Assembly: GCA_041659405.1 (NCBI GenBank)
Contig: JBAZYK010000013.1
Coordinates: forward strand, 1 to 32,000
Direction: 5' to 3'
Length of the DNA stretch: 32,000 bases
DNA from: Candidatus Altimarinota bacterium
GTDB taxonomy: Bacteria > Patescibacteriota > Gracilibacteria > UBA1369
The translations under genes and the position numbers were made by a program. Positions 5,766 through 25,287 of the stretch are shown piece after piece. The notes under the pieces were generated by a model. It ran no database searches and had not been told where the DNA came from. It saw only the letters and a program-made list of their open reading frames with translations. Positions within the stretch are counted from its first letter, which is position 1; every line of letters begins with the position of its first letter.

Positions 5766-5884
5766 ACGTAATTTTATTAAAATAGGGGCCAATTCTGCTA
5801 TAGCAAGTCTTTTTTGTCAAGTAAATTTATTGGAGGGTACTTGTTCGTGAGTCTTTTACGTGTAGCAACCAAAAGGCCAGTACG

Positions 5885-5912
5885 TTGTTTTCTTTATCCA
5901 CTCTGTTACAAT
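5885..5912 (+). promoter_or_regulatory. Candidate sigma70-type promoter with extended -10 (TGtTACAAT) for the Cys-rich protein gene
   Basis: TTGTTT (5885-5890), 16-nt spacer, TG (5904-5905) n TACAAT (5907-5912). Lies 63 nt upstream of the ATG at 5975. The 11-mer TCTGTTACAAT recurs at 8702-8712. Confidence 0.4.
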
Positions 5913-5974
5913 AGACCAGAATAGTCTCAAAATAGTACTAGTCCCTATCAAGCAGCCAGAAAATCTTGAAACTC

Positions 5975-8595: not shown

Positions 8596-8701
8596 GTGTA
8601 AAGTATAAAGTATTACTTCATGGTTGTCAATGGGCATTATTTTGATTTCAATGCAGATACAAGTTAACCATCGAATGATGTGTACACAATACGCATGGAA
8701 T

Positions 8702-8712
8702 TCTGTTACAAT
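8702..8712 (+). promoter_or_regulatory. Candidate extended -10 promoter element (TCTGTTACAAT) for the exonuclease gene
   Basis: TGtTACAAT at 8704-8712, 30 nt upstream of the ATG at 8742. Same 11-mer as at 5902-5912. The -35 region is weak, as expected for extended -10 promoters. Confidence 0.4.
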
Positions 8713-8741
8713 CAATTTCGTACAATTTATAAATATCCCCC

Positions 8742-9455
8742 ATGCACCTAATCTACCTCGACACCGAAACCACCGGTCTGGACCCAAACGCCCGACTTGT
8801 TCAGCTAGCCTACAAAACTTCCGCGACCGGCGAAGCGTTGAATGAGTACTTCAAGCCACCAATTCCAATTTCGTTTGGGGCGATGTCCATGCATCATATT
8901 ACCGAAAAAAAGGTCGCCGATAAGCCGGTTTTTAAGGATAGCGCGGCGCAGGCCAGGTTAATTGCGCTGCTTGCGGAAGGCCATATTCTCGTTGCCCACA
9001 ACGCCGCTTTTGATATTCATATTTTGAAAAATGAGGATGTAACAATCGGTCAGCACATTGATACTTTGCGATTGGCCAAACATCTTGTAACAAGCGAACA
9101 GTACAAGCTTCAGTATTTAAGATATTTTTTGGATTTGGATGCAGAGGGTTTGCCGCATGACGCGGAAGGGGACGTGATGGTCTTGGAAGCTTTATTTAAC
9201 CGTTTACGTTCGTTGACCCAGGAAAAATTTACGCTAGCAGGTGATGACGAAGTCCTGACGAAAATGTTGGAACTAAGCCAAACACCGGTTTTACTTAAAA
9301 CTTTTGGTTTTGGAAAACACATCAATAAAACCTTTGAAGAGGTGAGTTTCTCCGATCGCGGTTATTTGGAATGGTTGTACGGCAGCGAATCCAAGAAAAA
9401 CAAATCCGACCAGGACGAAGATCTGGTTCACACTTTGAAGTATTATTTAAAATAG
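8742..9455 (+). CDS. DEDDh 3'-5' exonuclease (DnaQ/epsilon-like) with a C-terminal ExoX-like tail
   Basis: ExoI 'YLDTETTGLD', ExoII 'VAHNAAFDIHIL', ExoIII 'HDAEGDVMVL' (the H-x4-D form defines DEDDh). 237 aa, standalone (not fused to a polymerase). Confidence 0.85.
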   Translation: MHLIYLDTETTGLDPNARLVQLAYKTSATGEALNEYFKPPIPISFGAMSMHHITEKKVADKPVFKDSAAQARLIALLAEGHILVAHNAAFDIHILKNEDVTIGQHIDTLRLAKHLVTSEQYKLQYLRYFLDLDAEGLPHDAEGDVMVLEALFNRLRSLTQEKFTLAGDDEVLTKMLELSQTPVLLKTFGFGKHINKTFEEVSFSDRGYLEWLYGSESKKNKSDQDEDLVHTLKYYLK

Positions 9456-12500: not shown

Positions 12501-13043
12501 CAGATAATTTTTATTTTCTTTCAGAATTTCCCGCAGTGTCTTTGGATCAAGCCCGCCTTTTTTCAGTTCACCGATTTTTTTGATGATGTCACGAAGGTAC
12601 GTATAGCCCTGTTCCGGATTATAGGATCTTAGCAGCGTGTCGTGCTTTAACGCCTCCAAGATTTTTTCCACAATTTTATACTGAACCAGTTCATCGGCAG
12701 GATTAAAAGAAGCCCCCTGATAAAAAAACTCCGGATTTCGGTTAATGATTTCCGAACCAAAACTATGAAAAGTGTGAATGGCCACCCTATAAGCTTCCTG
12801 CCCAATCAGACCGGCAAGCCTTTTGCGCATGTTTACAGCCGCCGAATCGGTAAAAGTAAGACAAAGTATGGAAGAGGGAAGTGTATCCGTAGAACGCAAA
12901 ATATTGGCAACCCTTAAACTTAAAAGCTCCGTTTTGCCGGATCCCGGCCCCGCAATCACCAAAACCGGCCCATCTATTGTATCCACAGCCCTTTTCTGCT
13001 CGGCATTCAGGTTCTGATATCTTTCTGAAAAGTGATTATTCAT
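9558..13043 (-). CDS. UvrD/PcrA/AddA-type SF1 helicase fused to a C-terminal RecB-family PD-(D/E)XK nuclease
   Basis: 1161 aa. Walker A 'AGPGSGKT', motif II 'VDEFQDT', 'NYRSTQPIL', 'AHKAKGLEFENVFV', 'YVTLTRAKRNLYL'. C-terminal 'GKIDRI ... LVFDYKTGK ... NQLIFYKIL' gives the D / D-x-K / QxxxY nuclease motifs. Confidence 0.85.
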   Translation of the reverse strand: MNNHFSERYQNLNAEQKRAVDTIDGPVLVIAGPGSGKTELLSLRVANILRSTDTLPSSILCLTFTDSAAVNMRKRLAGLIGQEAYRVAIHTFHSFGSEIINRNPEFFYQGASFNPADELVQYKIVEKILEALKHDTLLRSYNPEQGYTYLRDIIKKIGELKKGGLDPKTLREILKENKNYLEQVNGFFPEIFSARMSKKTLEQIAGLLEKLKNVPMQPRTKVLPYKPIGTQLIDSLELAFGDSMSGEKPDTKPITVWKNEYLKKNDQNLPSLKELENIKKHFELCEIYEKYQQELRKEGYFDFDDMLMDTAEVIAKNPELRYNLQERYLYVLVDEFQDTNAVQMQLLDLLLDAEVNERRPNILAVGDDDQAIYKFQGANLENILNFHQKYLNPELVVLQKNYRSTQPILDLVRKIILTGNERLEARLPDQIKKELQSANTKLTNGEILEKEFQTGFEELAWIAETIKHKIEVEKVPPSEIAVIAPKHKILEETAKVLDYFGIPVAYERKKDLLEQKHLREIILMLRFVSTMLLKGQKEADDFLPEILSFEFWGIERLEVWKISVQASHERKLWMEVMLSSDNEKIKAIAEFFLDLGIAAKAGTAEEIIDLITGSTQEKNLLDEDGMALPKEESGFTEPSSKFQSPYKKYYFSNERFENSRLDYLDFLQSLQAFVKKIRQHRGTETLTVKDVVEFVELHETHHLSMHHKSAFNDEEKAVNLMTAHKAKGLEFENVFVLHCQEDFWIDRKSDKLSFPANIPLSPESDSVEDPLRLFYVTLTRAKRNLYLCRHIYSPKGNEQIRLRFLEEGEFEKKKRENISLEQVEGYREEYAANKGLEKLLELQFEVSRHEVRNIDENDLLKGLIKNYKLSVTHLNNFLNIVDGGPQKFLEQNLLKFPQKLTTSNAFGSAMHAALQELLVTMKRTNEVPELEFLLQEFEKSLLKQRLNQKDFAHLLEKGRDHLKIYYEKRRADFNAKDQAEFDFQQQGVVLGKAEITGKIDRIRYDEDKKEILVFDYKTGKPLQDWQGKQDFEKIKAWKNRNQLIFYKILVENARDFKGRYKVRNGFLEFLQPINDEIKLLELNISEEETEKMKKLIQVVYRKIVDLDFPDVTDYEKNVEGIQCFVDNLLAEWTKPKNDSDNFDAGAPEFTAQDYEMAGEGL

Positions 13044-13105
13044 TATTTAGTTTAAATTTTGTCGCTACTGGGCTATATTCTATCAGGCTTTTTTGATTAC
13101 TGCAT

Positions 13106-14563
13106 ATGTTTGAACAATCCTTTAAAAATATCGACGATATTCTCCACAAAGATGCCGGTGCATCAAGTGAGCTTGATTACGTAGAACAGACCTCGTGGAT
13201 CCTTTTTTTGAAGTATCTTGATGACCTGGAAAAGGATAAAAAGACCGAAGCATCGCTTGCCGGGAAAAAATATAAAGATATTATTGATCCAAAGTTTCGT
13301 TGGGAAGTTTGGGCTGCGCCAAGAACTACAGATGGTAAATTAGACCATCACAAAGCCCTTTCAGGCGATGATTTAAAAGATTTTGTTGATCACCAGCTTT
13401 TTCCATATCTCAAAAAATTCAAGTCGGAAGCCGAAAGTCCGGACACCATTCAATATAAAATTGGTGAAATTTTTAGTGAGATCAAAAACAAGATCCAGAG
13501 CGGCTACAACCTGCGTGAAGTTTTGAATATTATTGACAGTATGCGCTTTCGTTCGCAGACAGAAAAGCACGAACTTTCGCACCTGTATGAAGGAAAAATT
13601 AAGAATATGGGTAATGCCGGCAGAAATGGCGGAGAATACTACACTCCACGTCCGCTTATTAAAACGATTGTTAAGGTTGTCGCTCCAAAAATCGGCGATA
13701 AAATTTACGATGGAGCCGTTGGTTCCGCGGGATTTTTGGTGGAAGCTTTTGAGTATCTTAAGCAGAGCAAGGATCTTTCCACGCATGACATGGAGATTCT
13801 GCAGAAAAAGACCTTTTACGGCAAAGAGAAAAAGTCCCTCGCTTACGTTATTGGCATCATGAACATGGTTTTGCATGGAATTGAAGCGCCAAACATTATT
13901 CACACCAACACTCTTGCCGAAAACCTAGCCGATATTCAGGAAAAAGATCGTTATGATGTTGTCCTGGCTAATCCGCCATTTGGTGGCAAAGAAAGGGCCG
14001 AAGTCCAACAAAATTTCCCCATAAAAACCGGAGAAACTGCGTTTCTGTTTCTTCAGCATTTTATAAAAATTCTAAAAGCCGGTGGCAAGGCGGGCGTTGT
14101 CATTAAAAATACTTTCCTTTCCAATACGGATAACGCCTCTGTTTCCCTCCGCAAGTTGTTGCTGGAAAGCTGCAATCTGCACAGCGTTCTGGATTTGCCC
14201 GGTGGAACCTTCACAGGCGCAGGCGTAAAAACAGTTATTTTGTTTTTCCAAAAAGGCACACCAACCAAGAAAGTTTGGTTTTACCAGCTAAACCTTGACC
14301 GCAATCTAGGCAAAACCAATCCACTTAACGAAAAAGACCTGGAAAAATTCGTGGAACTGCAAAAGACCAAAGCAGACAGCGAAAATTCATGGACGATAGA
14401 CGTCTCAAAAATTGACCAAAAAACTTTCGATCTATCGGTGAAAAACCCAAACAAAGGCGAAGAAGCCGCTTTGCGTGATCCAAAAGAAATTTTGGAGGAA
14501 ATGGGGAAATTGGATAAAGAAAGTGAGCAGATTTTGAAGAAAATTGAGGGGTTTATTTCGTAG
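13106..14563 (+). CDS. hsdM: Type I restriction-modification system, DNA methyltransferase subunit M (N6-adenine)
   Basis: HsdM N-terminal domain pattern ('ILHKDAG...YVEQTSWILFLKYLDD'), 'GEYYTPRPL', SAM motif 'DGAVGSAGFL', catalytic 'NPPFGG'. Confidence 0.92.
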   Translation: MFEQSFKNIDDILHKDAGASSELDYVEQTSWILFLKYLDDLEKDKKTEASLAGKKYKDIIDPKFRWEVWAAPRTTDGKLDHHKALSGDDLKDFVDHQLFPYLKKFKSEAESPDTIQYKIGEIFSEIKNKIQSGYNLREVLNIIDSMRFRSQTEKHELSHLYEGKIKNMGNAGRNGGEYYTPRPLIKTIVKVVAPKIGDKIYDGAVGSAGFLVEAFEYLKQSKDLSTHDMEILQKKTFYGKEKKSLAYVIGIMNMVLHGIEAPNIIHTNTLAENLADIQEKDRYDVVLANPPFGGKERAEVQQNFPIKTGETAFLFLQHFIKILKAGGKAGVVIKNTFLSNTDNASVSLRKLLLESCNLHSVLDLPGGTFTGAGVKTVILFFQKGTPTKKVWFYQLNLDRNLGKTNPLNEKDLEKFVELQKTKADSENSWTIDVSKIDQKTFDLSVKNPNKGEEAALRDPKEILEEMGKLDKESEQILKKIEGFIS

Positions 14564-14629
14564 AAATCTGGTTTGAAATTGGCTAATTGCGGACTTATAA
14601 TTCATTTTTATACAAAATTTCGTATAATC

Positions 14630-14657
14630 TTGACTTATATTTCTATTTTGATATACT
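14630..14657 (+). promoter_or_regulatory. Candidate internal sigma70-type promoter in the hsdM-ATPase gap
   Basis: TTGACT (14630-14635), 16-nt spacer, TG (14649-14650) a TATACT (14652-14657). Lies 33 nt upstream of the ATG at 14691. A second TATAAT lies at 14623-14628. Confidence 0.4.
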
Positions 14658-14690
14658 GTTTGTGTAATATAAGTAATAACTTATCATCAA

Positions 14691-15893
14691 ATGATACATT
14701 CATTTTCCTGCAAAAATTTCTACTCATTTGCCGAATATGCCAGCGTAAAATTTTTAGTGAACGATAAGGTTCCCGCAAAAGAAGCATATTTAAAATCAGA
14801 ATCAGGCGAACGTGTGTCCAAGGCTATGGTCGTTATAGGTCCAAATGCATCCGGTAAAACCAATTTGCTCAAAATTCCGCCGTTTTTAAAATGGTTGATT
14901 GTGGATTCTTTTAATACTAAGCCGGAAGATGAAATACCAATTAAGCCTTTTTTATTTCGTGATTTAGAAAATAAACCAACTGAGTTGTCCGTTGAATTTG
15001 AAATGAATGGCGATATTTATTCTTACTTTTTTGCTCTTTCCGCAAAACGAATTATCAAAGAGGAGTTAAAGGTGAAAAATAAAACCAAACAGAAAACGAC
15101 CACTAAAACTCTTTTTGTTCGTAACTGGAATGAAAAACAACAACAATATGAGTTAAACGATAAAAATTTTAATTTGCCCAAAGGATTTGAAAATGAAAAC
15201 TTTTTACGCTCCAACGCCAGCCTTATTGGCTCCGCCATGCGCTTAAATCATGAACTTAGCCAGGAGATTGGGAAATATTGGCAAAAAATTGAATCAAATG
15301 TTTATGAAGGTGGTCTTCGCACAAATCATATGCACGATTTTCGTGAAGCATTGTCTTTTTTTAGCGATAACGAACCTTTAAAAAAAGAAGCGGAAAAACT
15401 TTTGGCCCGCTACGATATAGGTTTGGAGGCATTTAATATTACAAAAGAAAAAAAAGAAGGGCGCACGCGCGTCGATGCACGCGCGGTACATTCCTTTTCG
15501 GGTCACAAATATGAGTTGCCGATTGAGTATGAATCGTCCGGAACACGCCAGCTTTTCATTCTTTTAAGTACAATTTTACAGGTTTTATCAAATGGAGGGA
15601 TAGCAGTATTGGATGAATTTGATGTTAATCTTCATCCTGACATGGTGTCGGCCTTATTCGATCTTTTTGTTTCACCAGCTACGAATCCCCATAACGCCCA
15701 AATTATTTTCAGTACGCACAGCCATCGCATTTTGAGCGAATTAGACAAATACCAGATTATTTTGACTGAAAAAAATGAGAATGGCAGCAGTGAAGCTTGG
15801 CGATTGGACGAAATGTCCGGTGTGCGTGCGGATGATAATTATTACACCAAATACATTGCCGGAGCATACGGCGCTATACCAAAAATTGATTAA
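14691..15893 (+). CDS. ABC-type (AAA_21/AAA_15-like, RloA/OLD-ATPase-like) ATPase
   Basis: 400 aa. The 'MIHSFSCKNFYSF' start is typical of this family. Walker A 'GPNASGKTN', signature-like 'ESSGTRQLF', Walker B 'IAVLDEFDVNLHP', H-loop 'IFSTHS'. Confidence 0.8.
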   Translation: MIHSFSCKNFYSFAEYASVKFLVNDKVPAKEAYLKSESGERVSKAMVVIGPNASGKTNLLKIPPFLKWLIVDSFNTKPEDEIPIKPFLFRDLENKPTELSVEFEMNGDIYSYFFALSAKRIIKEELKVKNKTKQKTTTKTLFVRNWNEKQQQYELNDKNFNLPKGFENENFLRSNASLIGSAMRLNHELSQEIGKYWQKIESNVYEGGLRTNHMHDFREALSFFSDNEPLKKEAEKLLARYDIGLEAFNITKEKKEGRTRVDARAVHSFSGHKYELPIEYESSGTRQLFILLSTILQVLSNGGIAVLDEFDVNLHPDMVSALFDLFVSPATNPHNAQIIFSTHSHRILSELDKYQIILTEKNENGSSEAWRLDEMSGVRADDNYYTKYIAGAYGAIPKID

Positions 15894-15904
15894 CCCGCTC
15901 CGTC

Positions 15905-16438
15905 ATGTCCAGATCAAACCCCTACAAGAAGGCAAAAAGAGAAGCAAAGAAAACCATTCTTTTCTATGGTGAAGGAGAGGCGGAAAGCATTTTCTTAAAA
16001 CATTTAAAGAAAATGTACGCCAATAATAGCGGAATTGCGGTAACAATTCGCAATGGACACGGGGGAACAGCCGAAATTATTGTTCATAAAGCCATTCAAT
16101 ATCCTGGTGATTTTGACAGGAGAGTTGTAGTGTTGGACAACGATAAGCTAAAGCAGGAAATGGAGCAGGCCAGAAAGTTAGCAGGGAAATGCGAAATTGA
16201 TTTAATAGAGAACACTCCATGTTTGGAAGCACTACTTCAGTCAATTGTGGACGGTGGTAAGCCAAAAATGAACAAAAGTTCAGCCCAATACAAGAAAAAT
16301 TTTGAAAAAAATCATATCTGCAAAGAAAAGCGTCTTGATCCAAGAGAATATGAAAAATTATTCACTATAAAATTATTGGATAAACGGCGGAAAGAGATAA
16401 AGAATCTGGAGGTGATTATTGGGTTTATGGAGGGGTGA
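15905..16438 (+). CDS. RloB-like (TOPRIM-type) protein
   Basis: 177 aa. Basic N-terminus then 'TILFYGEGEAES' (TOPRIM glutamate; compare the RloB pattern 'ILIVCEGEKTE'), 'VVVLDND' (DxD), 'ENTPCLEALLQ' (compare the RloB pattern 'sNPCFElWlL'). Starts 11 nt after the ATPase stop. Confidence 0.65.
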   Translation: MSRSNPYKKAKREAKKTILFYGEGEAESIFLKHLKKMYANNSGIAVTIRNGHGGTAEIIVHKAIQYPGDFDRRVVVLDNDKLKQEMEQARKLAGKCEIDLIENTPCLEALLQSIVDGGKPKMNKSSAQYKKNFEKNHICKEKRLDPREYEKLFTIKLLDKRRKEIKNLEVIIGFMEG

Positions 16439-16500
16439 TTTGAAGAAAGCAATGAGGATTAATCGCCACACTGAAAAATAAATAATTATTAAAAATTTAC

Positions 16501-17355
16501 ATGAGTAGAATATTTGATTTTAAAAAAAGATTTGGGCAAGAAGTAAATATTGATGACCTCAAAAAAGATTTTATAAACAAGATTAGCCATTTTTTAATGG
16601 AAGAGCTAGATGGAAAAATCGGTTCATTTTATAGTGACAGAACTAAATCTATTTTTGATTTTGTTGCTATGGAGTTTAGCTGTAATCCATCAAATTTGAT
16701 ACAAAAATACAATAGCAATAGTTTTGGCCCTACTCTCTCTAGGCCCACTTTTTCTATATTCTCTGGAAATGATTTTGAAAAAACGCTTTTATTGATTGAA
16801 GTTTTTTATGATTATTTCAGACGTTCTGACGACTATGAAAAAGAATTTTGGATAGAAGAAATCGATAAAACAGTACTATTAGCTCTTAGTCAGCCAATTT
16901 CGCTTGGTATTTCTTGGCGTAATGGTAGATTTTATCCAGAAGGGGTGAAAGAATTCGATGAGAAATTGATTTCAGATGTATTGATATGGCTTGAAAACAA
17001 ACCAAAAATCAAAGCACTTTATCAAAATGCTCTCGATCATTACTCTAAATCGATAAATGATCCAATTAAGAGGAAAGATGTGTTTAGTAATGCTTTTCAG
17101 GCTGTCGAAAAGCTTACAAAAGAATTTCTAGAAACTTCAACGAATGCTTTTGATAACAATTTTAACGCTTTAATAAAAAAACTCGACCTTCATAAAGAAT
17201 GGAGTAAAATATTTAATTCTTACAAGGAATTGAGTAAGGAGTTTGGTAGGCATGGTGGAAATAATGATAATTTTATTCCAGAACAAGCTGATACAGAAGC
17301 CTTTTTATATTTATCAGGATTAATTATGAGGCTAATTCTTCAAAAAATATTATGA
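16501..17355 (+). CDS. Hypothetical protein, 284 aa (possible degenerate Abi_C/HEPN-like C-terminus)
   Basis: Long AT-rich ORF with an ATG start, same strand as the operon. Its stop overlaps the next gene's start (ATGA at 17352-17355). No motif I can assign firmly. The tail 'FGRHGGNN-x10-EAFLYLSGLIMRLIL' is laid out like Abi_C-type tails but lacks a canonical Rx4-6H. Confidence 0.6.
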   Translation: MSRIFDFKKRFGQEVNIDDLKKDFINKISHFLMEELDGKIGSFYSDRTKSIFDFVAMEFSCNPSNLIQKYNSNSFGPTLSRPTFSIFSGNDFEKTLLLIEVFYDYFRRSDDYEKEFWIEEIDKTVLLALSQPISLGISWRNGRFYPEGVKEFDEKLISDVLIWLENKPKIKALYQNALDHYSKSINDPIKRKDVFSNAFQAVEKLTKEFLETSTNAFDNNFNALIKKLDLHKEWSKIFNSYKELSKEFGRHGGNNDNFIPEQADTEAFLYLSGLIMRLILQKIL

Positions 17356-18335
17356 GTGAAAGATCAATTGAAGTAATTTCTATCCATTTCAATGTTCCGA
17401 GTCATTATTTACTGCTTAGTGAATTTATTGAAACAGCAAATGATGTAGAACAAATATTGCAAGAATTTAATTTTAAATTCTTTGATGCCAAACTTAATAT
17501 TCAGATTTTAGTTTTACCTCCAGAGGAGGGGAGTTTTCTTAAAAAACTGGGCATATTTTTTGCATTACCAGTTTGCGTTTTATCATGGGGGTTTCTAGAA
17601 AGCGACATAGGAAAAGCTTACATAAAAGGCCTAACAGGTAATGAACCTGCTTATTGGGCAGAAATTGCCGGTGAAGGTACCGCAAAGGAGTTAATAATTT
17701 TAAAAGAATCAGTTAAGGGGTTTCTAGAAAAAAATAATAACACTTTAGAGCAAGCTGGGATCAAAATTAATGAATTTCCATTTGCTTATAAGGCACGAAA
17801 TAATTTTTACAACATGTGCTTAAAAAGTGAGGAAATCTCAGGAGTAGAATTTAATAATTCTGGTTGTTTCGATATTAAAAGAGTTAATTTCCCTAACTAT
17901 TTTACAAAGGAAATTGATAAGCCAGATGGTAAAAAATCTAAATCTGTATTTAGGCTGCACAGACTAGTAATTGTTGCACCTGTTATAAGTGGAGGTAGTT
18001 CTGCTCAATGGAAGACGCGAGATGCAAAAACACTAAATCCATTAAATTTTTTTCTTAAGGATGAGGATTTTTATGATGGAATTTTATCCGGAAAATATCC
18101 GCTTAAAGAAACAGGAAACGACGATATTATCACAGTATGCATCGAATATAAAATACATGAAGAAAATGGACAAGAAAAAGTTTACGAAAGAAGTGCTATC
18201 AAAGTATACCAATTTAATAATATCAAGATAGCTGAGATTCCTACAGATCTAGAACTCATGGCATTTAAAGAATCAAAACATTTTGAAGATAAAGAAAAAG
18301 AAAATAGAAATGAAAATCAGCCTTCATTATTTTAA
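17352..18335 (+). CDS. Hypothetical protein, 327 aa, one hydrophobic segment, Lys/Glu-rich tail
   Basis: ATG overlaps the upstream stop by 4 nt. Ends 9 nt before hsdS. Hydrophobic stretch 'LGIFFALPVCVLSWGFL'. C-terminal 'KESKHFEDKEKENRNENQ'. No recognisable catalytic motif. Confidence 0.6.
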   Translation: MSERSIEVISIHFNVPSHYLLLSEFIETANDVEQILQEFNFKFFDAKLNIQILVLPPEEGSFLKKLGIFFALPVCVLSWGFLESDIGKAYIKGLTGNEPAYWAEIAGEGTAKELIILKESVKGFLEKNNNTLEQAGIKINEFPFAYKARNNFYNMCLKSEEISGVEFNNSGCFDIKRVNFPNYFTKEIDKPDGKKSKSVFRLHRLVIVAPVISGGSSAQWKTRDAKTLNPLNFFLKDEDFYDGILSGKYPLKETGNDDIITVCIEYKIHEENGQEKVYERSAIKVYQFNNIKIAEIPTDLELMAFKESKHFEDKEKENRNENQPSLF

Positions 18336-18344
18336 CTATAACCT

Positions 18345-19547
18345 ATGGTCAAAAAAACTATCCAGACTAATTGGCAAACCAAAAAACTCGATGAAGTCTG
18401 TGATTTAATAACTTGTGGCGTGGCTGCTAGGCCTAATTATGTTGTGAATGGTACTCCATTTCTTTCTGCAAAAAATGTAAAAAATGGCCAAGTAATTTGG
18501 AATGGTTTTAATTGTATTTCTGAAAGTACTCATAAAGAATTAACGAAAAATAATAAACCCATGGTTGGCGATATATTGTATACACGCGTAGGTAGCTATG
18601 GAGAAGCAGCAGTTGTTGAGGATAATATTGAATTTAGTATATTTGTTAGCCTTACCTTAATTAAGGTAAATAAGAATTTATTAAATAATTATTTTTTAAA
18701 ATATTATCTTAATTCGAGTTATATAAAAAGTTTGGCAAAGAGCAGTATTAGCAGTTCTGGTGTCGGTAATTTAAATGTTGGGTCAGTTCGAGATTTTCCA
18801 ATATCTTTCCCCCCCATTCCCGAACAACGCCGCATCGTAAAAATCCTCGATGAAGCTTTTGAAAAAACCGCAAAAGCCAAAGAAAACGCCGAAAAAAATC
18901 TACAAAATGCCAAAGAGCTTTTTGAATCGTATTTACATAGTGTTTTTACCAATTCGGGAAAGGATTGGGAGGAGGAAGAATTGGGTGATATTTGTGAAGT
19001 TGAGTATGGATACACCGAAAAAGCAAAAAACAACGGTGACTATCGGTTTGTAAGGATCACTGACACAGACGAAAATGGTTTACTGACAAAAGAAAATAAG
19101 ATGTACATAGATTCTTTTGACGGGGCGGATAAATATGTTTTGAATGACGGAGATTTGCTCATGGCTCGAACGGGTGCTTCTGCAGGTAATGTATTATTAT
19201 TTGAGGGTGATGAAGATGCAGTATTTGCATCGTACCTAATTAGAATGAAATTTAAAAAAGAAATATTAAGTAAGCTGTATTGGTATTTCTCAAAATCTAA
19301 AATTTATTGGGATCAAGTTAGCCAACTATCCGCTGGTTCGGCGCAACCTCAATTTAACGGCGGCGCACTAAAGCAGGTCATTTTTTCTTATCCAAAATTT
19401 TTCTCTGAACAAAAGGCCATCGTCGCTCACCTCGACGCCCTCTCCGCCGAAACCAAAAAGCTCGAATCAATTTATAAACAAAAGCTCACTAATCTGGAAG
19501 AGCTCAAGAAATCAGTGCTCAAAAAAGCATTTTCTGGTCAATTGTAG
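18345..19547 (+). CDS. hsdS: Type I restriction-modification system, specificity subunit S
   Basis: 400 aa. Two variable target-recognition regions are separated by the conserved helical spacer 'PPIPEQRRIVKILDEAFEKTAKAKENAEKNLQNAKELFESYL'. The protein ends in the second conserved region 'EQKAIVAHLDALSAETKKLESIYKQKLTNLEELKKSVLKKAFSGQL'. Confidence 0.9.
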   Translation: MVKKTIQTNWQTKKLDEVCDLITCGVAARPNYVVNGTPFLSAKNVKNGQVIWNGFNCISESTHKELTKNNKPMVGDILYTRVGSYGEAAVVEDNIEFSIFVSLTLIKVNKNLLNNYFLKYYLNSSYIKSLAKSSISSSGVGNLNVGSVRDFPISFPPIPEQRRIVKILDEAFEKTAKAKENAEKNLQNAKELFESYLHSVFTNSGKDWEEEELGDICEVEYGYTEKAKNNGDYRFVRITDTDENGLLTKENKMYIDSFDGADKYVLNDGDLLMARTGASAGNVLLFEGDEDAVFASYLIRMKFKKEILSKLYWYFSKSKIYWDQVSQLSAGSAQPQFNGGALKQVIFSYPKFFSEQKAIVAHLDALSAETKKLESIYKQKLTNLEELKKSVLKKAFSGQL

Positions 19548-19570
19548 ATTTTTATAATTAATTTAATTTT

Positions 19571-20140
19571 ATGGCTAATATTATCACAAAAACAGCTGAA
19601 GAATTGTCAGAAACGGATGATCTTGTTATTGATGAGCTATTGCATTCATCAAATGTATTTATTGTGTTACATCCCACTGAGGATAAGGAGGATTTAAATA
19701 TTGTTAAAGAATTGGGAAATGCCTTGAATTATATGGGTAACATGTTTGCATATGAAGAACTAGGGGGAAAAGGAGGTGGGGGTTGTGATTTATTACCATC
19801 CCTTTCAGATGTTATATTTTATTCGGTTGCTTTTGTCGTAACAACATCTGCAACAACTTTTATTACTGAGTTAACAAAAGATATATATAAATCTACATTA
19901 AAAAAGTTGTTTGATAAAAAAAAGAATTCTTCCTATGAAGATGGTAAGTTTGTGCTCAAATTGACAACGTCTGCAGGCTCAACCATTACTTATTATTTCC
20001 AAAAATATTTAACTAATGATGAATTTATTGAAGCATTAGTACTTGTGCGGGATCATTTTATTAATTTTGAAAATAGCCATAAAATTGAATATCTTGATTT
20101 TATATTTGATAGAAAAGAAAATTCCTGGATGCCGCTATAG
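19571..20140 (+). CDS. Hypothetical protein, 189 aa, Gly-run plus one hydrophobic segment
   Basis: Very AT-rich ORF, ATG 23 nt after the hsdS stop. 'GGKGGGGCDLLPSLSDVIFYSVAFVVTTSATTFI' is a glycine run followed by a putative membrane segment. No known motif recognised. Confidence 0.5.
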   Translation: MANIITKTAEELSETDDLVIDELLHSSNVFIVLHPTEDKEDLNIVKELGNALNYMGNMFAYEELGGKGGGGCDLLPSLSDVIFYSVAFVVTTSATTFITELTKDIYKSTLKKLFDKKKNSSYEDGKFVLKLTTSAGSTITYYFQKYLTNDEFIEALVLVRDHFINFENSHKIEYLDFIFDRKENSWMPL

Positions 20141-20198
20141 AATTTTGTAGTTTATATCCATCTGCATAAATATTAAGTTTTCTTATCGGCTTTGTATA

Positions 20199-20317
20199 CT
20201 CGAGCCACGAAATGTCCTCGAACCAAAAAACTCGAAGCAATCTATCGCCAAAAACTCGCAAAGCTGGAAGAACTCAAGAAATCCGTCCTGAAAAAAGCTT
20301 TTGCGGGGGAATTGTAA
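20199..20317 (+). pseudogene. hsdS 3'-terminal remnant (scar 1): ...RTKKLEAIYRQKLAKLEELKKSVLKKAFAGEL*
   Basis: By hand alignment, 20222-20317 matches the intact hsdS end 19452-19547 codon for codon: 76/96 nt and 25/31 aa identical, including the stop position. No TRD and no plausible start. The frame is broken just upstream (about 20219) relative to hsdS. Confidence 0.8.
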
Positions 20318-20336
20318 ATTATGTTACACTTAAAAC

Positions 20337-20507
20337 ATGAGCAAACTATTACCAAAAAAACGAGGCGACACACTGGTTAAAACCATAGAGAAAAAGTATG
20401 GCGTTGATTTAGGGTATCGGTCAGACGCTCAGCTTCATACTGTGCTAAAAAAAGAAGGCCTGCCCTCTCTTTCCAAGCTTTTGAAAATGGTACACAAAGA
20501 GATATAG
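20337..20507 (+). CDS. Small hypothetical protein, 56 aa (MSKLLPKKRGDTLVKTIEKKYGVDLGYRSDAQLHTVLKKEGLPSLSKLLKMVHKEI)
   Basis: ATG at 20337, TAG at 20505-20507. Below the 60-aa cutoff of the ORF track, found by reading. Ends 9 nt before the next gene. Helical, SAP/HTH-like appearance ('LHTVLKKEGLPSLSKLL'), but no firm family. Confidence 0.35.
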   Translation: MSKLLPKKRGDTLVKTIEKKYGVDLGYRSDAQLHTVLKKEGLPSLSKLLKMVHKEI

Positions 20508-20516
20508 CTGAAATAT

Positions 20517-21050
20517 ATGAGCAATTTCGATTTTATTAAAGATGAAAATCTCCGTAACACACTGGATGATGCCATTGAGTTTATTTATGTACTTTTTAAA
20601 AGATCTAAAGAAGAAGGGCAAAAAGAATTATACAAAGAGGAAACACATAGAATAATAATTTTATATGTTGTGTCGGCAATAGAAGCCGTCTTGCTTTACT
20701 TCTATAAAGATCGAGGCGAAAGAATTAAACATCCAGAATATAAGTTTGTTCAGGCATTGTCCCCAAAGTTTGGACACAGCGAGAAAAAGGGTTGCCCTTT
20801 AGTAATCGCGGTTCAAGAAAAAAAAGAGAAAGATCAAATAGGCATGCGCGATCTCGTAACTTTTTTTAAAGCTAAAAAACTCATAGAAGAAAAAATGGCA
20901 AATGACATTTTAGAATTAAATGACGTAAGAAATACATTTCATTTAAGTAAGCCACGAGCTAAAAGTTGCGATGTGAAGCAGGTTGAGGCTGCGCTTCAGT
21001 TATTAGTGCATACAATTGAAAATGCACCAAAGGCATTAGAGAAAAAATAA
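20517..21050 (+). CDS. Hypothetical all-alpha protein, 177 aa, HEPN-like layout with non-canonical 'RNTFH'
   Basis: N-terminal 'FIKDENLRNTLDDAIEFIYVLF ... IILYVVSAIEAVLLYFY' and C-terminal 'ELNDVRNTFHLSK' resemble small HEPN-type proteins seen next to R-M genes. The R-to-H spacing is 3 residues, not the canonical 4-6. Confidence 0.5.
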   Translation: MSNFDFIKDENLRNTLDDAIEFIYVLFKRSKEEGQKELYKEETHRIIILYVVSAIEAVLLYFYKDRGERIKHPEYKFVQALSPKFGHSEKKGCPLVIAVQEKKEKDQIGMRDLVTFFKAKKLIEEKMANDILELNDVRNTFHLSKPRAKSCDVKQVEAALQLLVHTIENAPKALEKK

Positions 21051-21061
21051 AAAACATTACT

Positions 21062-21253
21062 ATGACTGATGAAGAAATAGCTATCAAACAGCAAGCGAAC
21101 GAATTTGCCCAAAAGACCAGGAAGGAAGACACTTCCAGTGATTTTTCCAAGTTTTTTCGTAAAGCGTCTTATGCTCAGAAAAGGAAGGTGTTTTTGGAGG
21201 TAGCCAAGAAGGCAAGCAAGGAACAACTAGAAGTTATTCAGAGTGTTCAATAA
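21062..21253 (+). CDS. Small hypothetical protein, 63 aa, charged/helical
   Basis: ATG 11 nt after the preceding stop. 'MTDEEIAIKQQANEFAQKTRKE...KASKEQLEVIQSVQ'. Its stop codon (21251-21253) sits exactly at the junction with hsdS scar 2. Confidence 0.4.
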   Translation: MTDEEIAIKQQANEFAQKTRKEDTSSDFSKFFRKASYAQKRKVFLEVAKKASKEQLEVIQSVQ

Positions 21254-21290
21254 ATCCATCCTAAAAAAGGCATTTAGCGCTAGCCTATAG
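21252..21290 (+). pseudogene. hsdS 3'-terminal remnant (scar 2): KSILKKAFSASL*
   Basis: 13 codons, AAA TCC ATC CTA AAA AAG GCA TTT AGC GCT AGC CTA TAG. Compare the intact hsdS end KSVLKKAFSGQL* (9/12 aa and 25/39 nt identical by hand count; Ser and Leu use different codon families). Similarity stops abruptly upstream of 21252. Confidence 0.5.
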
Positions 21291-21300
21291 CAATTTCTTT

Positions 21301-21356
21301 AAATAGGTACAATTTAGGTATAAAATAGGTATAATTAGACCTATTTCTACTATAAT
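21301..21356 (+). promoter_or_regulatory. hsdR upstream region: three tandem 11-bp units containing TAGGTA, plus overlapping -10-like hexamers
   Basis: TAGGTA at 21304, 21315 and 21326 (exact 11-bp phasing; units AAATAGGTACA / ATTTAGGTATA / AAATAGGTATA). A partially inverted GACCTA lies at 21338-21343. TACAAT at 21308, TATAAT at 21330 and TATAAT at 21351. The hsdR ATG is at 21371. Confidence 0.4.
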
Positions 21357-21370
21357 TTGAAAAATAACCT

Positions 21371-23722
21371 ATGAACGAATCAGAAACCCGCGCGGAATAT
21401 ATTGACCCCAAGCTTAAACAAAGTGGCTGGGGAGAAATAGAAGGATCAAAAATTCTTCGTGAATTTCGCATTACAGAGGGCAGAATTCAGGTTGGCGGCA
21501 CGCGCATGAAGCCGGAAATTGCCGATTATGTTTTAGTGTACAAAAATGTGAAACTTGCCGTGATTGAGGCTAAAAAAGAAGATTTAAGTGCTACCGAAGG
21601 CGCGGCTCAGGCAAAAGCTTATGCTGAAAAATTGAAGATTGATCATACCTACGCAACTAATGGTAAGAAAATTTACGAGATTTCCATGAAAACCGGCGTG
21701 GAGGGCTATGTGGACTCTTTTCCAACTCCGGAAGAATTATGGAACAAGGTTTTTGCGCGTCACAATGAATGGCGCGAGAAATTTTTGGCAGTTCCGTCGG
21801 AAGGAGAATACGGGAAACGGTATTATCAAGAACTTGCCATTAATAGGGCATTAGAGGCTATTGCTGAAGAAAAGAAACGAATCTTGCTAACTTTAGCCAC
21901 CGGAACCGGCAAGACGATTATCGCCTTCCAGATAGCCTGGAAACTCTTCCAGACCCGTTGGAATATAAAGCGTGATGGAAGCAGAAGACCAAGGGTTCTT
22001 TTTCTTGCGGATCGCAATATTTTGGCAGATCAGGCTTTCAACTCATTTTCATCTTTTGCTGAGGACGCATTGGTGCGCATTAACCCCGCAGACATAAAGA
22101 AAAAGGGGAATGTGCCAACAAATGGCAGTATTTTCTTCACGATTTTCCAGACTTTTATGAGTGGGCCGAATAATACGCCTTATTATGGCGATTATCCTGC
22201 TGATTTCTTTGATTTTATTATTATTGATGAGTGTCACCGTGGCGGTTCAAATGACGAATCAAACTGGCGGGGGATTCTGGAGCATTTTTCTCCGGCTGTT
22301 CAGCTCGGTTTAACCGCAACTCCAAAACGAAAAGATAATATTGATACTTACAAATATTTTGGCGAACCGGTTTACATTTATTCGCTTAAAGAAGGGATCA
22401 ATGATGGCTTTTTAACGCCATTTAAAGTCAAAAGGATTCAAACGACTCTTGATGAGTACGTTTATACTTCCGATGATCAGATTGTTGAGGGCGAGGTGGA
22501 AGAAGGGAAAATTTATGAAGAATCCGATTTTAATAGAATTATCGAGATCAAGGAGCGCGAAGCAAAACGCGTTCAAATCATGCTGGACGAAATCAATCAA
22601 AACGAGAAAACGATTGTGTTCTGCGCGTCGCAGGATCATGCGCTTGCGGTACGGGACTTAATCAATCAAACCAAAAAAAGTTCAGATCCAAATTATTGTG
22701 TGCGTGTAACTGCTAACGATGGTGCGCGCGGTGAGCAGTTTTTACGGGCTTTTCAGGATAATGAAAAAACTATTCCAACAATTCTGACCACTTCCCAAAA
22801 GCTGTCCACGGGTGTTGATGCCCGCAATATTCGCAATATTGTTTTGATGCGTCCGATCAACTCCATGATTGAATTTAAGCAGATTGTAGGGCGCGGAACG
22901 CGTCTTTTTGATGGAAAAGAGTATTTTACGATCTTTGATTTTGTCGATGCCTATAAGCATTTTTCTGATCCACAGTGGGACGGCGAGCCAATCGATGAAA
23001 CAACCGAAAATAAAGAGCCAAAAAATACGAATTATGATGTCGATCCTTCTAAAAACAGTGGATTAGCTTTAGCTGATGGGGATTTTGAAGGTTTTGAACC
23101 AAAGAAAAAATTGAAAATAAAATTGCGGGACGGCAAAGAACGTGAAATCAAACACATGATCTCTACTTCCTTCTGGAGCGCCGACGGCAAGCCAATTTCA
23201 ACGGAAGAGTTTTTGCAAAATATGTTTGGGACTCTGCCGGAGTTTTTTGCCAATGAAGATGAATTGCGGAAAATCTGGTCAAATCCAAAAACAAGAAAAA
23301 TGTTTTTAGAGAAGATTGCGGATCTTGGATACGGGAAAGATCAGCTAATAACATTACAAAAAATGATCGACGCCGAAAAAAGCGATATTTTTGATGTACT
23401 TGCCTATATTTCCTTTGCCACACCGCCAATTTCCAGAAAAGAACGTGTAGATGAAGCAAAAGATGCCATTCTAAAGCCACTTGATGAACAGCAAAAAGAT
23501 TTCTTTGGATTTGTGCTGAACGAATATGTTGAAAATGGAGTAGAAGAGCTCGACGAAGAAAAATTGCCTGATCTGCTAAATCTGAAATATCACGCAATCT
23601 CTGATGCTGAAAAAGCGCTTGGTGGAGTCGAAAAGATCAGGTCGACCTTTTTCAATTTTCAAAAGGATTTATACTTAAACAAGCGTAAAGTTGAGGTGAA
23701 AAATGTGAAGTCGCCAAAGTGA
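21371..23722 (+). CDS. hsdR: Type I restriction enzyme, restriction/translocase subunit R (EcoEI-type C-terminal domain)
   Basis: N-terminal PD-(D/E)XK 'IADYVLVYKNVKLAVIEAKKE'. SF2 motifs 'LATGTGKT', 'IIIDECHR', 'LGLTATPKR', 'QIVGRGTR'. The C-terminal 'SDIFDVLAYISF...' region resembles the EcoEI R-protein C-terminal domain. Confidence 0.92.
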   Translation: MNESETRAEYIDPKLKQSGWGEIEGSKILREFRITEGRIQVGGTRMKPEIADYVLVYKNVKLAVIEAKKEDLSATEGAAQAKAYAEKLKIDHTYATNGKKIYEISMKTGVEGYVDSFPTPEELWNKVFARHNEWREKFLAVPSEGEYGKRYYQELAINRALEAIAEEKKRILLTLATGTGKTIIAFQIAWKLFQTRWNIKRDGSRRPRVLFLADRNILADQAFNSFSSFAEDALVRINPADIKKKGNVPTNGSIFFTIFQTFMSGPNNTPYYGDYPADFFDFIIIDECHRGGSNDESNWRGILEHFSPAVQLGLTATPKRKDNIDTYKYFGEPVYIYSLKEGINDGFLTPFKVKRIQTTLDEYVYTSDDQIVEGEVEEGKIYEESDFNRIIEIKEREAKRVQIMLDEINQNEKTIVFCASQDHALAVRDLINQTKKSSDPNYCVRVTANDGARGEQFLRAFQDNEKTIPTILTTSQKLSTGVDARNIRNIVLMRPINSMIEFKQIVGRGTRLFDGKEYFTIFDFVDAYKHFSDPQWDGEPIDETTENKEPKNTNYDVDPSKNSGLALADGDFEGFEPKKKLKIKLRDGKEREIKHMISTSFWSADGKPISTEEFLQNMFGTLPEFFANEDELRKIWSNPKTRKMFLEKIADLGYGKDQLITLQKMIDAEKSDIFDVLAYISFATPPISRKERVDEAKDAILKPLDEQQKDFFGFVLNEYVENGVEELDEEKLPDLLNLKYHAISDAEKALGGVEKIRSTFFNFQKDLYLNKRKVEVKNVKSPK

Positions 23723-23823
23723 GCATTTTCTTCTTTACACGCCCCTTCCATATTTCGCCAAAATAGGCTAAATTATTGGCCTTGTATTATTTTTGGCCGC
23801 CTGGCCTCTACGCCCCTCACACT

Positions 23824-25287
23824 ATGGCTAACAACGAAACAATCATCAGCTTTGACGCAGTCTCATTTGAATATCTTCATGATAAACCGCTATTAAACGA
23901 AGCCAGCTTTTCTGTCCGCAGAGGGAGCAAAGTGACTTTTATGGGCCAAAACGGCGCCGGTAAAAGTACGATTTTTAAACTTTTGGCTGGAACCTTAAAG
24001 CCTCAATCAGGACACGTAAACGTTGTTCCTCGCCTTACCATCGCCACTGCGCATCAGGTTATGCCGGCAACTGACCGCGAATTAACCGTAAGCGAATTTT
24101 TTCAAAAATGTTTCCACGAAAAAAAGTACGATCTTGATCGCCGCATTGATGAAATTCTTGAAGTGGTAAATCTTCATGCTCCACATGACAAAATCGTTAA
24201 AGCTTTTTCCGGAGGACAGCAGGCCAGATTATTGCTTGCTGCAGCCCTTATTCAGGATCCTGATTTGTTGCTTCTGGATGAACCGACCAATAATCTTGAT
24301 AAAACCGGTATTGAACATTTGACCGACTTTCTAATCAACTACCCAAAAACGTGCATAGTTATTTCCCATGATGAAGACTTTTTGAATGCTTTCACCGAAG
24401 GAGTTTTGTATTTGGATATTTTTACCCGCAAAGTTGAACAGTATGTTGGTAATTATTTTGATGCCGTTGCGGAAATTGCCATTCGTATCGAAAAGGAAAA
24501 TCGCAAAAATGCCCAGCTGGCAAAAGAGATTCAAGAGAACAAAGAGCAGGCCAATGTTTTCGCCCATAAAGGTGGTAAATTAAGACTTGTGGCAAAACGC
24601 ATGCGTGAAAAAGCTGAAGAGTTTGAGGAAAACAAGGTCGATGTCCGTCGTGAAGATCAAACCATTCGCAATTTTACGATCCCCGCGCAGGAAGATCTTT
24701 CCGGTGAAATTTTGAAAATTTCTTCATTGATGGTTATAAAAAATCATCAGCCAACTACAAAAAAGGCCAAAATTTCTTTAAGAAAAAATCAGCATTTGCT
24801 TCTTTCCGGCCCAAACGGAATCGGCAAAAGTACGCTGCTTGAATCTTTGGCGCAGGGGACTGCTACAGGCGCAAAGATCGATCCAAGTGTCAGAGTTGGC
24901 TATTATCGCCAGGATTTTTCCACGCTTAATTTTGAGCACACAGTCCACCAGGCGCTTCACGAAGCCCTAAAGTTGTCAGGAGAAGAACTCCATGAAGAAA
25001 TTCTTCGTTCGGTGGCATCAGGCTTTCTTATCACCAGAGAACTGATTAACAGCAAAATCGGCAACATTTCCGAAGGTCAAAAAGGGCTGGTTGCGTTTGC
25101 CTGTCTGGTTTTGCAAAAGCCGGGACTTTTAATTTTGGATGAGCCGACCAACCATATTAATTTCCGCCATCTTCCGATTATTGCCGCCGCGCTGGACCAA
25201 TATGAAGGAGCCATGATTCTGGTTTCCCACGTGCCGGAATTCGTTGAACAGATCAGAATTGATGAAATTCTTGATCTTAATAAATAA
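23824..25287 (+). CDS. ABC-F family ATPase (two ABC cassettes, no membrane domain)
   Basis: Walker A 'GQNGAGKST' and 'GPNGIGKST'. Signatures 'FSGGQQ' and 'ISEGQK'. Walker B 'LLLLDEPTNNLD' and 'LLILDEPTNHIN'. Charged linker between cassettes. Start moved from the TTG at 23776 to the ATG at 23824 (MANNETIISFD...). Confidence 0.85.
   Translation: MANNETIISFDAVSFEYLHDKPLLNEASFSVRRGSKVTFMGQNGAGKSTIFKLLAGTLKPQSGHVNVVPRLTIATAHQVMPATDRELTVSEFFQKCFHEKKYDLDRRIDEILEVVNLHAPHDKIVKAFSGGQQARLLLAAALIQDPDLLLLDEPTNNLDKTGIEHLTDFLINYPKTCIVISHDEDFLNAFTEGVLYLDIFTRKVEQYVGNYFDAVAEIAIRIEKENRKNAQLAKEIQENKEQANVFAHKGGKLRLVAKRMREKAEEFEENKVDVRREDQTIRNFTIPAQEDLSGEILKISSLMVIKNHQPTTKKAKISLRKNQHLLLSGPNGIGKSTLLESLAQGTATGAKIDPSVRVGYYRQDFSTLNFEHTVHQALHEALKLSGEELHEEILRSVASGFLITRELINSKIGNISEGQKGLVAFACLVLQKPGLLILDEPTNHINFRHLPIIAAALDQYEGAMILVSHVPEFVEQIRIDEILDLNK

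Follow-up and report, generated by a model that had tools for sequence, protein, structure and literature searches.

Within a 32,000-nucleotide (nt) stretch of a Candidatus Altimarinota contig (JBAZYK010000013.1, positions 1 to 32,000; hereafter the window), a Type I restriction-modification (R-M) operon comprising hsdM, hsdS, hsdR, and many additional genes spans 13106-23722, all on the + strand. Between its intact hsdS and hsdR lie two further copies of the hsdS 3′ end in the same orientation, neither with a target-recognition domain (TRD). We refer to the end of the intact gene as copy 1 and to the two remnants as copy 2 (stub 1) and copy 3 (stub 2); coordinates are collected in Table 1. 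The interval probably consists of three nested blocks, each from a different ancestral or donor hsd locus, that were brought together through illegitimate joints at their left edges, with the stubs persisting as inert scars.

The case begins with the stubs themselves. Copies 1 and 2 align in register on the same strand, agree at 76/96 nt and 25/31 amino acids (aa), and both end in a stop codon. A repeat search paired them at 80% over 100 nt, and their homology breaks off sharply at 20221/20222. We also constructed a 40-aa profile of the HsdS C-terminus from 99 distinct full-length HsdS proteins; because these came only from other loci, the profile is independent of the window. Searches covered 1,610 six-frame segments for the window and 125,146 segments for all loci, the survey set being 160 hsdR-anchored loci (designated by L numbers), some of them duplicated between collections. 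Copy 2 was recovered by the protein profile at E values of 3.6e-20 (window) and 2.8e-18 (all loci) and by a DNA profile at 8.8e-23 (window), and at the sequence level it is an unmistakable hsdS 3′ end. For copy 3, the protein profile gave 2.7e-4 (window) and 0.021 (all loci) and the DNA profile 0.0049 (window) and 0.37 (all loci), a significant but weaker indication that this short segment is likewise an hsdS 3′ end. The copy 3 core, KSILKKAFSASL plus stop (21252-21290), matches the resident hsdS end at 25/39 nt and 9/12 aa, and the profile lengthens it leftward by two codons to FNKSILKKAFSASL (21246-21287, with the stop through 21290). Given its shortness, the case for copy 3 leans partly on context: it lies on the hsdS strand, its alignment reaches the last position of the profile and is followed by a stop, it agrees at 28/31 nt with the L009 hsdS 3′ end, which directly adjoins hsdR, and a 43-nt element downstream of it (described below) also comes after hsdS ends in L025, L102, and L030.

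The stubs are diverged alleles. Codon differences between copies 1 and 2 comprise nine synonymous and six non-synonymous changes, and the longest exact run common to both is 11 nt. Stub 1 shares 80% identity with the neighboring hsdS and a similar 77-80% with hsdS ends from unrelated taxa, a Brocadia genome among them. Its profile score of 65.2 bits (functional-end median, 63.7) shows no decay as judged by sequence. Stub 2, about 64-65% identical to the resident hsdS end over ~45 nt, reaches 18.3 bits where true ends have a median of 26.0 over these 14 positions, a score that is low but within their range and would be consistent with greater age. The initial annotation of this DNA had taken the copies at 20222-20317 and 21252-21290 as genuine hsdS ends that differ largely by synonymous or conservative changes and stem from distinct hsdS alleles, not from a recent local duplication. 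The profile test places both copies above background, the codon counts agree with the second point, and the equal nearness of stub 1 to its neighbor and to foreign ends bears out the third; for copy 3, the hsdS derivation stands and the start moves from 21252 to ~21246.

The left edges of the stubs appear to be the sole true junctions, with the right edges being ordinary contiguous sequence. Upstream of and overlapping stub 1, window positions 20163-20232 align over 72 nt, at 75% identity, with the promoter and gene start of a ParA-like ATPase (L112 8924-8995), and a profile of eight ParA-like 5′ regions matches 20194-20232 (E 2.7e-5). The window reads ACG AAA TGT CCT CGA ACC AAA AAA CTC (TKCPRTKKL) where L035 has ATG AAA TTT CCT CGA ACA AAA AAG (MKFPRTKK), so the ParA-like start codon has been lost. 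The truncated gene passes in frame into hsdS codon -31 over ~10 nt common to both parents, CGAAC(C/A)AAAAA, and the overlap at ~20218-20232 provides the microhomology of this joint. A different origin for the stretch left of stub 1, namely an hsdS 5′ end left by an internal hsdS deletion between two ACCAAAAAACTCGA motifs, was rejected: an hsdS 5′ profile matches the true hsdS start only, and the stretch is claimed instead by the ParA-like profile. ParA-like genes recur as cargo between hsdS and hsdR in L004, L046/L099, L069, L105, L112, and L130.

At stub 2, the partner is the gene for a 63-aa protein (p63). Just two homologs were found, of 61 and 62 aa; one is located after a Zeta_toxin gene (L176) and the other between an hsdS stub and hsdR (L177). 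Both extend 3-4 residues beyond the point where p63 enters stub 2, which indicates that p63 has been truncated by a few codons. The breakpoints differ, falling at hsdS codon -31 in stub 1 and codon -14 in stub 2. Judged from this anatomy, each left edge would be an illegitimate, microhomology-type joint to a truncated gene. Homology-facilitated illegitimate recombination in naturally transformable bacteria, as well as microhomology-mediated deletion, produces a seamless join on one side and, on the other, a joint with a few to ~10 nt of microhomology that truncates the genes on both sides. The likeness is read from the junction anatomy of the window only; no parental sequences were found.

To the right of stub 1, no comparable break is seen. 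Positions 20222-21049 are colinear with L148 9156-9987 (70% over 840 nt), a locus from a Berkelbacteria metagenome-assembled genome (MAG) in which an intact hsdS end is followed by a 57-aa gene, a 179-aa gene, and hsdR. On the strength of this colinearity, stub 1 and the adjoining genes for a 56-aa and a 177-aa protein (p56 and p177) are regarded as one inherited piece. The segment to the right of stub 2 also has counterparts elsewhere. A 43-nt promoter/operator-like element begins 12 nt downstream of the stub, and 81-93% matches to it occur in L025 (two copies, 5824-5912), L102 (8271-8313 and 8479-8515), and L030 (~480-565). In those three loci, the element sits between an hsdS end and a cargo gene encoding a Fic domain plus a winged helix; in the window, hsdR itself comes directly after the element, and no fic gene intervenes. 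The TAGGTATAA-type element may be a binding site for the C-terminal winged-helix domain of the Fic protein. A promoter-like site was predicted at 21298-21326, although a promoter and terminator scan of 19300-21500 gave no enrichment relative to shuffled sequences.

These observations can be arranged into a history. Block C, the oldest, would contain the last 14 codons of one hsdS allele (hsdS_C), the promoter/operator-like element, and hsdR. Block B would contribute the last 31 codons of hsdS_B, the p56/p177 pair, and p63. Block A, the newest, would supply hsdM, the four genes embedded after it, the intact hsdS_A, a 189-aa cargo gene (p189), and the first nine codons of the ParA-like gene. At each joint, the newer block would have lost its right end and the older hsdS its left part. 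Two routes could lead to this arrangement. In the first, an allele would be replaced, the upstream crossover being homologous and the downstream join illegitimate, at a microhomology; hsdM, which is 76% identical at the nt level even to that of L112, is a possible substrate for the upstream crossover. In the second, tandem hsd units would arise and then be reduced by deletion to one hsdM-hsdS-hsdR (M-S-R) set. Our data cannot separate the two routes for the window locus. Under selection, a single functional M-S-R set would be kept along with the expression signals downstream, and leftovers bearing a TRD would be lost. Serial insertion or replacement at the hsdS terminus, with the oldest hsdS end nearest hsdR, had been proposed in the initial annotation. 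The colinearity of stub 1 with the intact L148 arrangement supports the serial mode, and the proposed order fits the greater decay of stub 2 and the occurrence of the promoter element after hsdS ends elsewhere. The two cargo cassettes envisaged there dissolve into mosaics of p189, the ParA-like 5′ stub, p56/p177, p63, and the promoter element.

Parallel scars occur in related loci. The hsdS gene abuts or overlaps hsdR in 41 loci, with the hsdS end -37 to +17 nt from the start of the hsdR frame. At least 300 nt of cargo separates the two genes in 94 of the 139 loci that have both a full hsdS end and hsdR, in keeping with the earlier suggestion that the hsdS 3′ region gathers accessory genes. 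Nearly all called cargo open reading frames (ORFs) are on the + strand, including every multi-locus family; the frequent families are Fic (23 loci), DUF3800 (11), helix-turn-helix plus SocA/Panacea (10), ParA-like (6), and Schlafen/AlbA_2 (5). Stubs resembling those of the window were found in about ten loci, and hsdS end stubs beyond the window are present in L015-17, L018/19, L041, L069 (two stacked), L090, L093, L010/12, L030, and L177. A C-terminal eight-residue motif plus stop was detected in 9/2,789 same-strand segments of the hsdS-hsdR interval and in 0/3,405 opposite-strand segments there; outside this interval it appeared in 4/107,268 segments, all chance matches. The scars are not specific to hsdS, given that hsdM 3′ and hsdR 5′ stubs were also found. 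Stubs of the hsdM 3′ end follow cargo downstream of hsdM in L025 (3211-3303, E 1e-17), L078 (4951-5060, 3e-13), L031 (1673-1823, 3e-10), and L010/12 (L010 5197-5261, 6e-6). Those of the hsdR 5′ end are present in L022/L089 (L022 3280-3308, between a ParA-like gene and hsdM) and L157 (8276-8321). In L030 (298-407), codons 1-26 of hsdR run in frame into the final 13 codons of hsdS (MNESETRAEYINPKLKSSGWGTVEKSVLKKAFSGEL plus stop), after which come the TAGGTATAA element, fic, and the genuine hsdR; this fusion looks like the scar of a deleted whole second hsd unit. The hsdR 5′ stubs of L030, L022/L089, and L157 would favor the second route in those loci at least. Separately, a ~40-nt unit was seen right after the hsdS stop in several loci, consisting of a GGCGAGACAA spacer and then a stub ending in (K)KAFxGEL plus stop (L018 160-200; L069 5806-5898, two stacked; L090 975-1016; L004 ~480-540). 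This unit could be a conserved regulatory piece and not merely a scar.

Several points weigh against the nested-block history. Stub 2 is just 45 nt long, and its support by itself is modest. Several short stubs of other loci share the GGCGAGACAA spacer and are therefore not independent events. Locus counts overstate the number of independent lineages, owing to duplicates and the lack of de-replication by lineage. The closest hsdR relatives, nearly all from Patescibacteria MAGs, reach at most 81% aa identity, and no near-isogenic allele was present in the collections scanned. With no close relative found, the parental blocks are inferred from distant loci (hsdR ~70-80% identical), and no pre-event or deletion allele was seen. 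Finally, breakpoints cluster in the last 12-50 codons, unlike what random illegitimate joining would be expected to give: hsdS stubs span 12-31 codons, all without a recognition domain, and hsdM stubs at most ~50 codons. Under the nested-block history, this clustering would be put down to selection against leftovers holding a TRD, together with erosion bounded on the right by the expression signals of the next gene. A more far-reaching version, possible but held tentatively, is that Type I operons acquire embedded defense genes in two steps, with whole or partial hsd units from different donors first stacked and then collapsed by microhomology deletion to one M-S-R set that kept both cargos. 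The hsd end stubs would then be a widespread fossil record in candidate-phyla bacteria, and the clustering would reflect selection against half-specificity subunits that create a lethal new restriction specificity.

The initial annotation had itself favored a different mechanism, in which the conserved terminal helix region of hsdS serves as a de facto attachment site and the repeats would allow the cassettes to be deleted again. On this view, circular or linear pieces consisting of an hsdS end plus cargo would enter by homologous (Campbell-type) recombination and so duplicate the hsdS end. The cargo is indeed bracketed by direct repeats of the hsdS 3′ end, the helix region is ~75-80% conserved at the nt level over ~90 loci, cargo between hsdS and hsdR is the majority state, and at hsdM, too, the stubs of the upstream gene come after the cargo. 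We nevertheless find this mechanism rather unlikely, since the left edges join truncated unrelated genes (the ParA-like gene at codon 9, p63 minus 4 codons) at differing hsdS positions, with neither an identical core nor a common crossover point. The homology on offer is limited to ~45 nt at about 64-65% identity for stub 2 and to a longest exact match of 11 nt for copies 1 and 2. Pfam, NCBIfam, and PADLOC scans of the locus and flanks revealed no integrase or recombinase in the 32 kb, and the p56/p177 pair occurs elsewhere without an hsdS piece. Genomic islands that integrate in the 3′ end of a gene, such as a tRNA gene, restore the gene and leave the displaced 3′ end as a direct repeat. As in these islands, the insert in the window is flanked on either side by the target gene's 3′ end, in one orientation; unlike them, the window lacks an integrase or identical core, its repeats are distinct alleles, and a truncated cargo gene is joined to the displaced end. 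As to renewed deletion, nothing supports recombination between the repeats. Exact-protein look-ups with hsdS, p189, p56, and hsdR returned the source contig and one identical Logan contig only, the layout being unchanged, and no deletion variants were seen among the contigs with exact proteins. One literature point does favor the attachment-site mechanism: the available text of one study already terms the hsdS/hsdR site a potential recombination hotspot (PMC12255303).

A quite unlikely account of the stubs is that they are kept as functional pieces, serving as ribosome-binding, translational-coupling, or promoter signals for the next gene, such that only insertions sparing them survive. In its favor, hsdS ends at or close to the hsdR frame start (-37 to +17 nt) in the 41 loci noted above; in L009, as the sequence reads, the hsdS stop overlaps the hsdR ATG; no stub has lost the exact 3′ end or the stop codon; the spacing from stub 1 to p56 is 19 nt, similar to the 21 nt in L148; and both the fusion at window stub 1 and that of L030 keep the reading frame. 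However, 80 nt that include a separate promoter-like element intervene between stub 2 and hsdR, and coupling via the ParA-like start upstream of stub 1 is unlikely given its mutation to ACG. Function would account for the retention of the stubs and not for their origin, and thus complements the nested-block history.

Two further accounts are, in our view, very improbable: that the hsdS end was tandemly duplicated on the spot and then diverged, or that the metagenome assembly is chimeric. Some short stubs elsewhere lie 15-60 nt past an intact hsdS stop and could be produced by a small duplication, but stub 1 is equidistant from its neighbor and foreign alleles, is colinear with L148, and is fused to the ParA-like stub. 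The window does come from a short-read metagenome assembly; against a chimera, the Logan contig (SRR6484324, L003) reproduces 1,823 nt across both stubs at 100% identity, although it may share its source sample with the window. Phase-variable Type I loci carry hsdS copies with TRDs, mostly inverted, with near-identical repeats, and usually beside a recombinase. The available descriptions of such epigenetic invertons (PMC7672463, PMC7394358) resemble the window in that more than one hsdS-derived sequence, here a partial copy near an intact hsdS, shares conserved repeats within one locus. Switching by recombination between silent partial copies and the expressed gene has a negligible chance of applying here and appears already refuted, because the stubs lack TRDs and recombination among them could not change specificity; they are also direct and diverged, about 64-80% identical to the resident end, with no recombinase gene nearby.

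Table 1. Features of the Type I R-M operon and of the interval between hsdS and hsdR (window positions).
Feature	Positions	Strand	Evidence
hsdM, Type I methyltransferase subunit	13106-14563	+	Pfam N6_Mtase 1e-65, HsdM_N
AbiL-like pair: AAA_21 ATPase (14691-15893) and RloB/AbiLii-like protein (15905-16438)	14691-16438	+	PADLOC AbiLi 6.5e-72, AbiLii 1.1e-8; Pfam AAA_21, RloB
Two embedded genes: 284 aa (16501-17355) and 327 aa (17352-18335)	16501-18335	+	Weak PADLOC PDC-S32 2.4e-5, PDC-S42 1.7e-9
Intact hsdS (allele A), two TRDs; terminal helix 19452-19547 is copy 1	18345-19547	+	Methylase_S 2e-37 (two stretches); Specificity_I 1e-50
189-aa cargo gene (p189)	19571-20140	+	ORF; G+C content 30.5% vs 38% for the window
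ParA-like cargo gene stub: promoter-like region and ~9 codons, ATG changed to ACG, predicted in-frame fusion with stub 1	20163-20232	+	Match to L112; 5′ profile
hsdS 3′ stub 1 (allele B; copy 2), last 31 codons plus stop, no TRD	20222-20317	+	Sequence match; profiles
Mobile two-gene module: 56-aa protein (20337-20507) and 177-aa HEPN-like protein (20517-21050)	20337-21050	+	Homologs; structure model
63-aa gene (p63), ~4 C-terminal codons short relative to two homologs; stop codon within stub 2	21062-21253	+	Homolog alignment
hsdS 3′ stub 2 (allele C; copy 3), last 14 codons plus stop	21246-21290	+	Sequence match; profiles
Promoter/operator-like element: TAGGTA(C/T)AA three times at 11-nt spacing, inverted repeat AATAGGT..ACCTATT, TATAAT	21303-21345	+	Recurrence in L025, L102, L030
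hsdR, EcoAI (Type IB) family	21371-23722	+	NCBIfam restrict_EcoAI (NF046051) 834.8 bits, cutoff 550, residues 1-768; PADLOC REase_I 1.4e-135

By its hsdR family, together with hsdM and the two-TRD hsdS, the locus is assigned to Type I R-M systems of the EcoAI (Type IB) family. The source contig, 54 kb long and from the short-read assembly, is labeled by NCBI as a Gracilibacteria MAG. Gracilibacteria are users of genetic code 25. Gene calls were kept because the large genes are intact under table 11 and TGA serves as the stop in 6/28 long ORFs. Comparison with L112, from a Peregrinibacteria MAG, suggests that an hsdS recognition domain may be common to several lineages: window positions 18979-19532, covering the second TRD and the terminal helix, are 82% identical at the nt level to a frameshifted hsdS (L112 6877-7430), which exceeds the identity of hsdM (76%) and hsdR (72%) between the same loci. 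Nine non-hsd ORFs lie between the hsd genes of the window, all in the same orientation. A homolog of the 284-aa protein is encoded upstream of hsdS in L046/L099 (1.8e-113). No hsdM stub was found beside the four genes embedded at 14691-18335, nor were any hsdM 3′ or hsdR 5′ stubs found within the window, and an Rfam scan of 12500-24000 at E values up to 1 returned no match. A few kb upstream of the operon, the window encodes a Fic-domain protein fused to a MerR-type DNA-binding domain (7591-8787, - strand), the gene end of which overlaps a 543-aa ORF (5966-7597) by 7 nt.

Two of the cargo proteins, p189 and p63, lack any family match in Pfam, PADLOC, NCBIfam, and PHROGs. A word-indexed search with p189 returned the self match only; 21 remote homologs of ~190 aa, with a conserved EKGGGG motif and an invariant C-terminal tryptophan, indicate that p189 belongs to a small undescribed family of ~190-aa proteins. 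Its AlphaFold 2 model (predicted local distance difference test [pLDDT] score, 84.5) has no significant fold match in the PDB.

The p56/p177 pair appears as a compact mobile module in many unrelated Patescibacteria contexts. Homologs of p177 form 115 clusters, and pairs of 57-aa and 180-aa proteins recur in the argS-ileS interval, next to a Schlafen-like helicase, close to a SocA/Panacea gene, and at other sites. Occurrences of the pair include L164, L167, L170, and L173 and, in the order hsdS-p57-p179-hsdR, L148 and L058. The possibility that the pair travels with an hsdS end was rejected, as no hsdS remnant adjoins it in four unrelated contexts; outside R-M contexts, nt homology to the window starts at ~20319, just past the stop of stub 1. 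Neither protein has a Pfam or PADLOC family match. The AlphaFold 2 model of p177 (pLDDT 88.4) has HEPN proteins as its top Foldseek matches in the PDB, with a probability of ~1.0, E values of 5e-3 or weaker, and template modeling scores of 0.4-0.5. Residues R138, N139, and T140 are invariant and F141 and H142 are kept in at least 90% of sequences, giving R-x3-H, one residue short of the usual HEPN catalytic motif, Rx4-6H. In the predicted helical fold and conserved R-N-T-F-H motif of p177, and in its organization as a two-gene mobile module in defense-type neighborhoods, the pair may resemble MNT-HEPN toxin-antitoxin systems (PDB 6m6w, 7bxo, 7ae8, 1ylm, 2hsb). It differs from them in the modest Foldseek E values, in having three residues between R and H, and in that the partner is 56 aa with no MNT nucleotidyltransferase. 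From the model and these contexts, we infer that p56/p177 may be a toxin-antitoxin-like or abortive-infection-like module.

Accessory genes embedded in Type I R-M operons are familiar from PrrC and the rlo genes of Campylobacter jejuni. Further cases, as described in the available portions of the respective papers, are TgvAB, embedded in a Type I R-M operon of Vibrio pathogenicity island 2 (VPI-2) of Vibrio cholerae (PMC11411939); DarTG2 of enteropathogenic Escherichia coli, embedded in a Type I R-M locus (PMC12255303); and the guilt-by-embedding candidates of Payne et al. 2024 (bioRxiv 10.1101/2024.01.29.577857). The present locus resembles these in carrying co-oriented non-hsd genes between hsdM, hsdS, and hsdR: AbiL-like, PDC-like, and HEPN-like in the window, and Fic, DUF3800, SocA/Panacea, ParA-like, and Schlafen/AlbA_2 in related loci. 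It differs in its host, an uncultured Patescibacteria lineage. The embedded genes are co-oriented and recurrent; an anti-phage role for them is possible by family resemblance, from the AbiLi and AbiLii matches and the HEPN-like fold. The searchable text of the embedding papers contains no description of leftover hsd gene ends as turnover markers or as a means of ordering acquisitions, and a term search of the text available for the Payne preprint returned nothing on remnants, recombination, or hsdS.

Embedded defense genes and a possible hotspot between hsdS and hsdR were thus already known, whereas the route by which cargo arrives has so far mostly been guessed. The stubs of the window and about ten related loci provide physical junctions that allow acquisitions to be ordered. 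These junctions point to untidy recombination, with homology on one side and microhomology on the other or with the collapse of stacked units, and not to a dedicated integration system. The locus is not a new type of mobile element or molecular machine; it is an informative and unusually legible fossil record. More generally, a gene-end stub beside an intact copy is a cheap, searchable signature for dating and tracing the turnover of cargo in defense loci, and it may be especially helpful in uncultured lineages.

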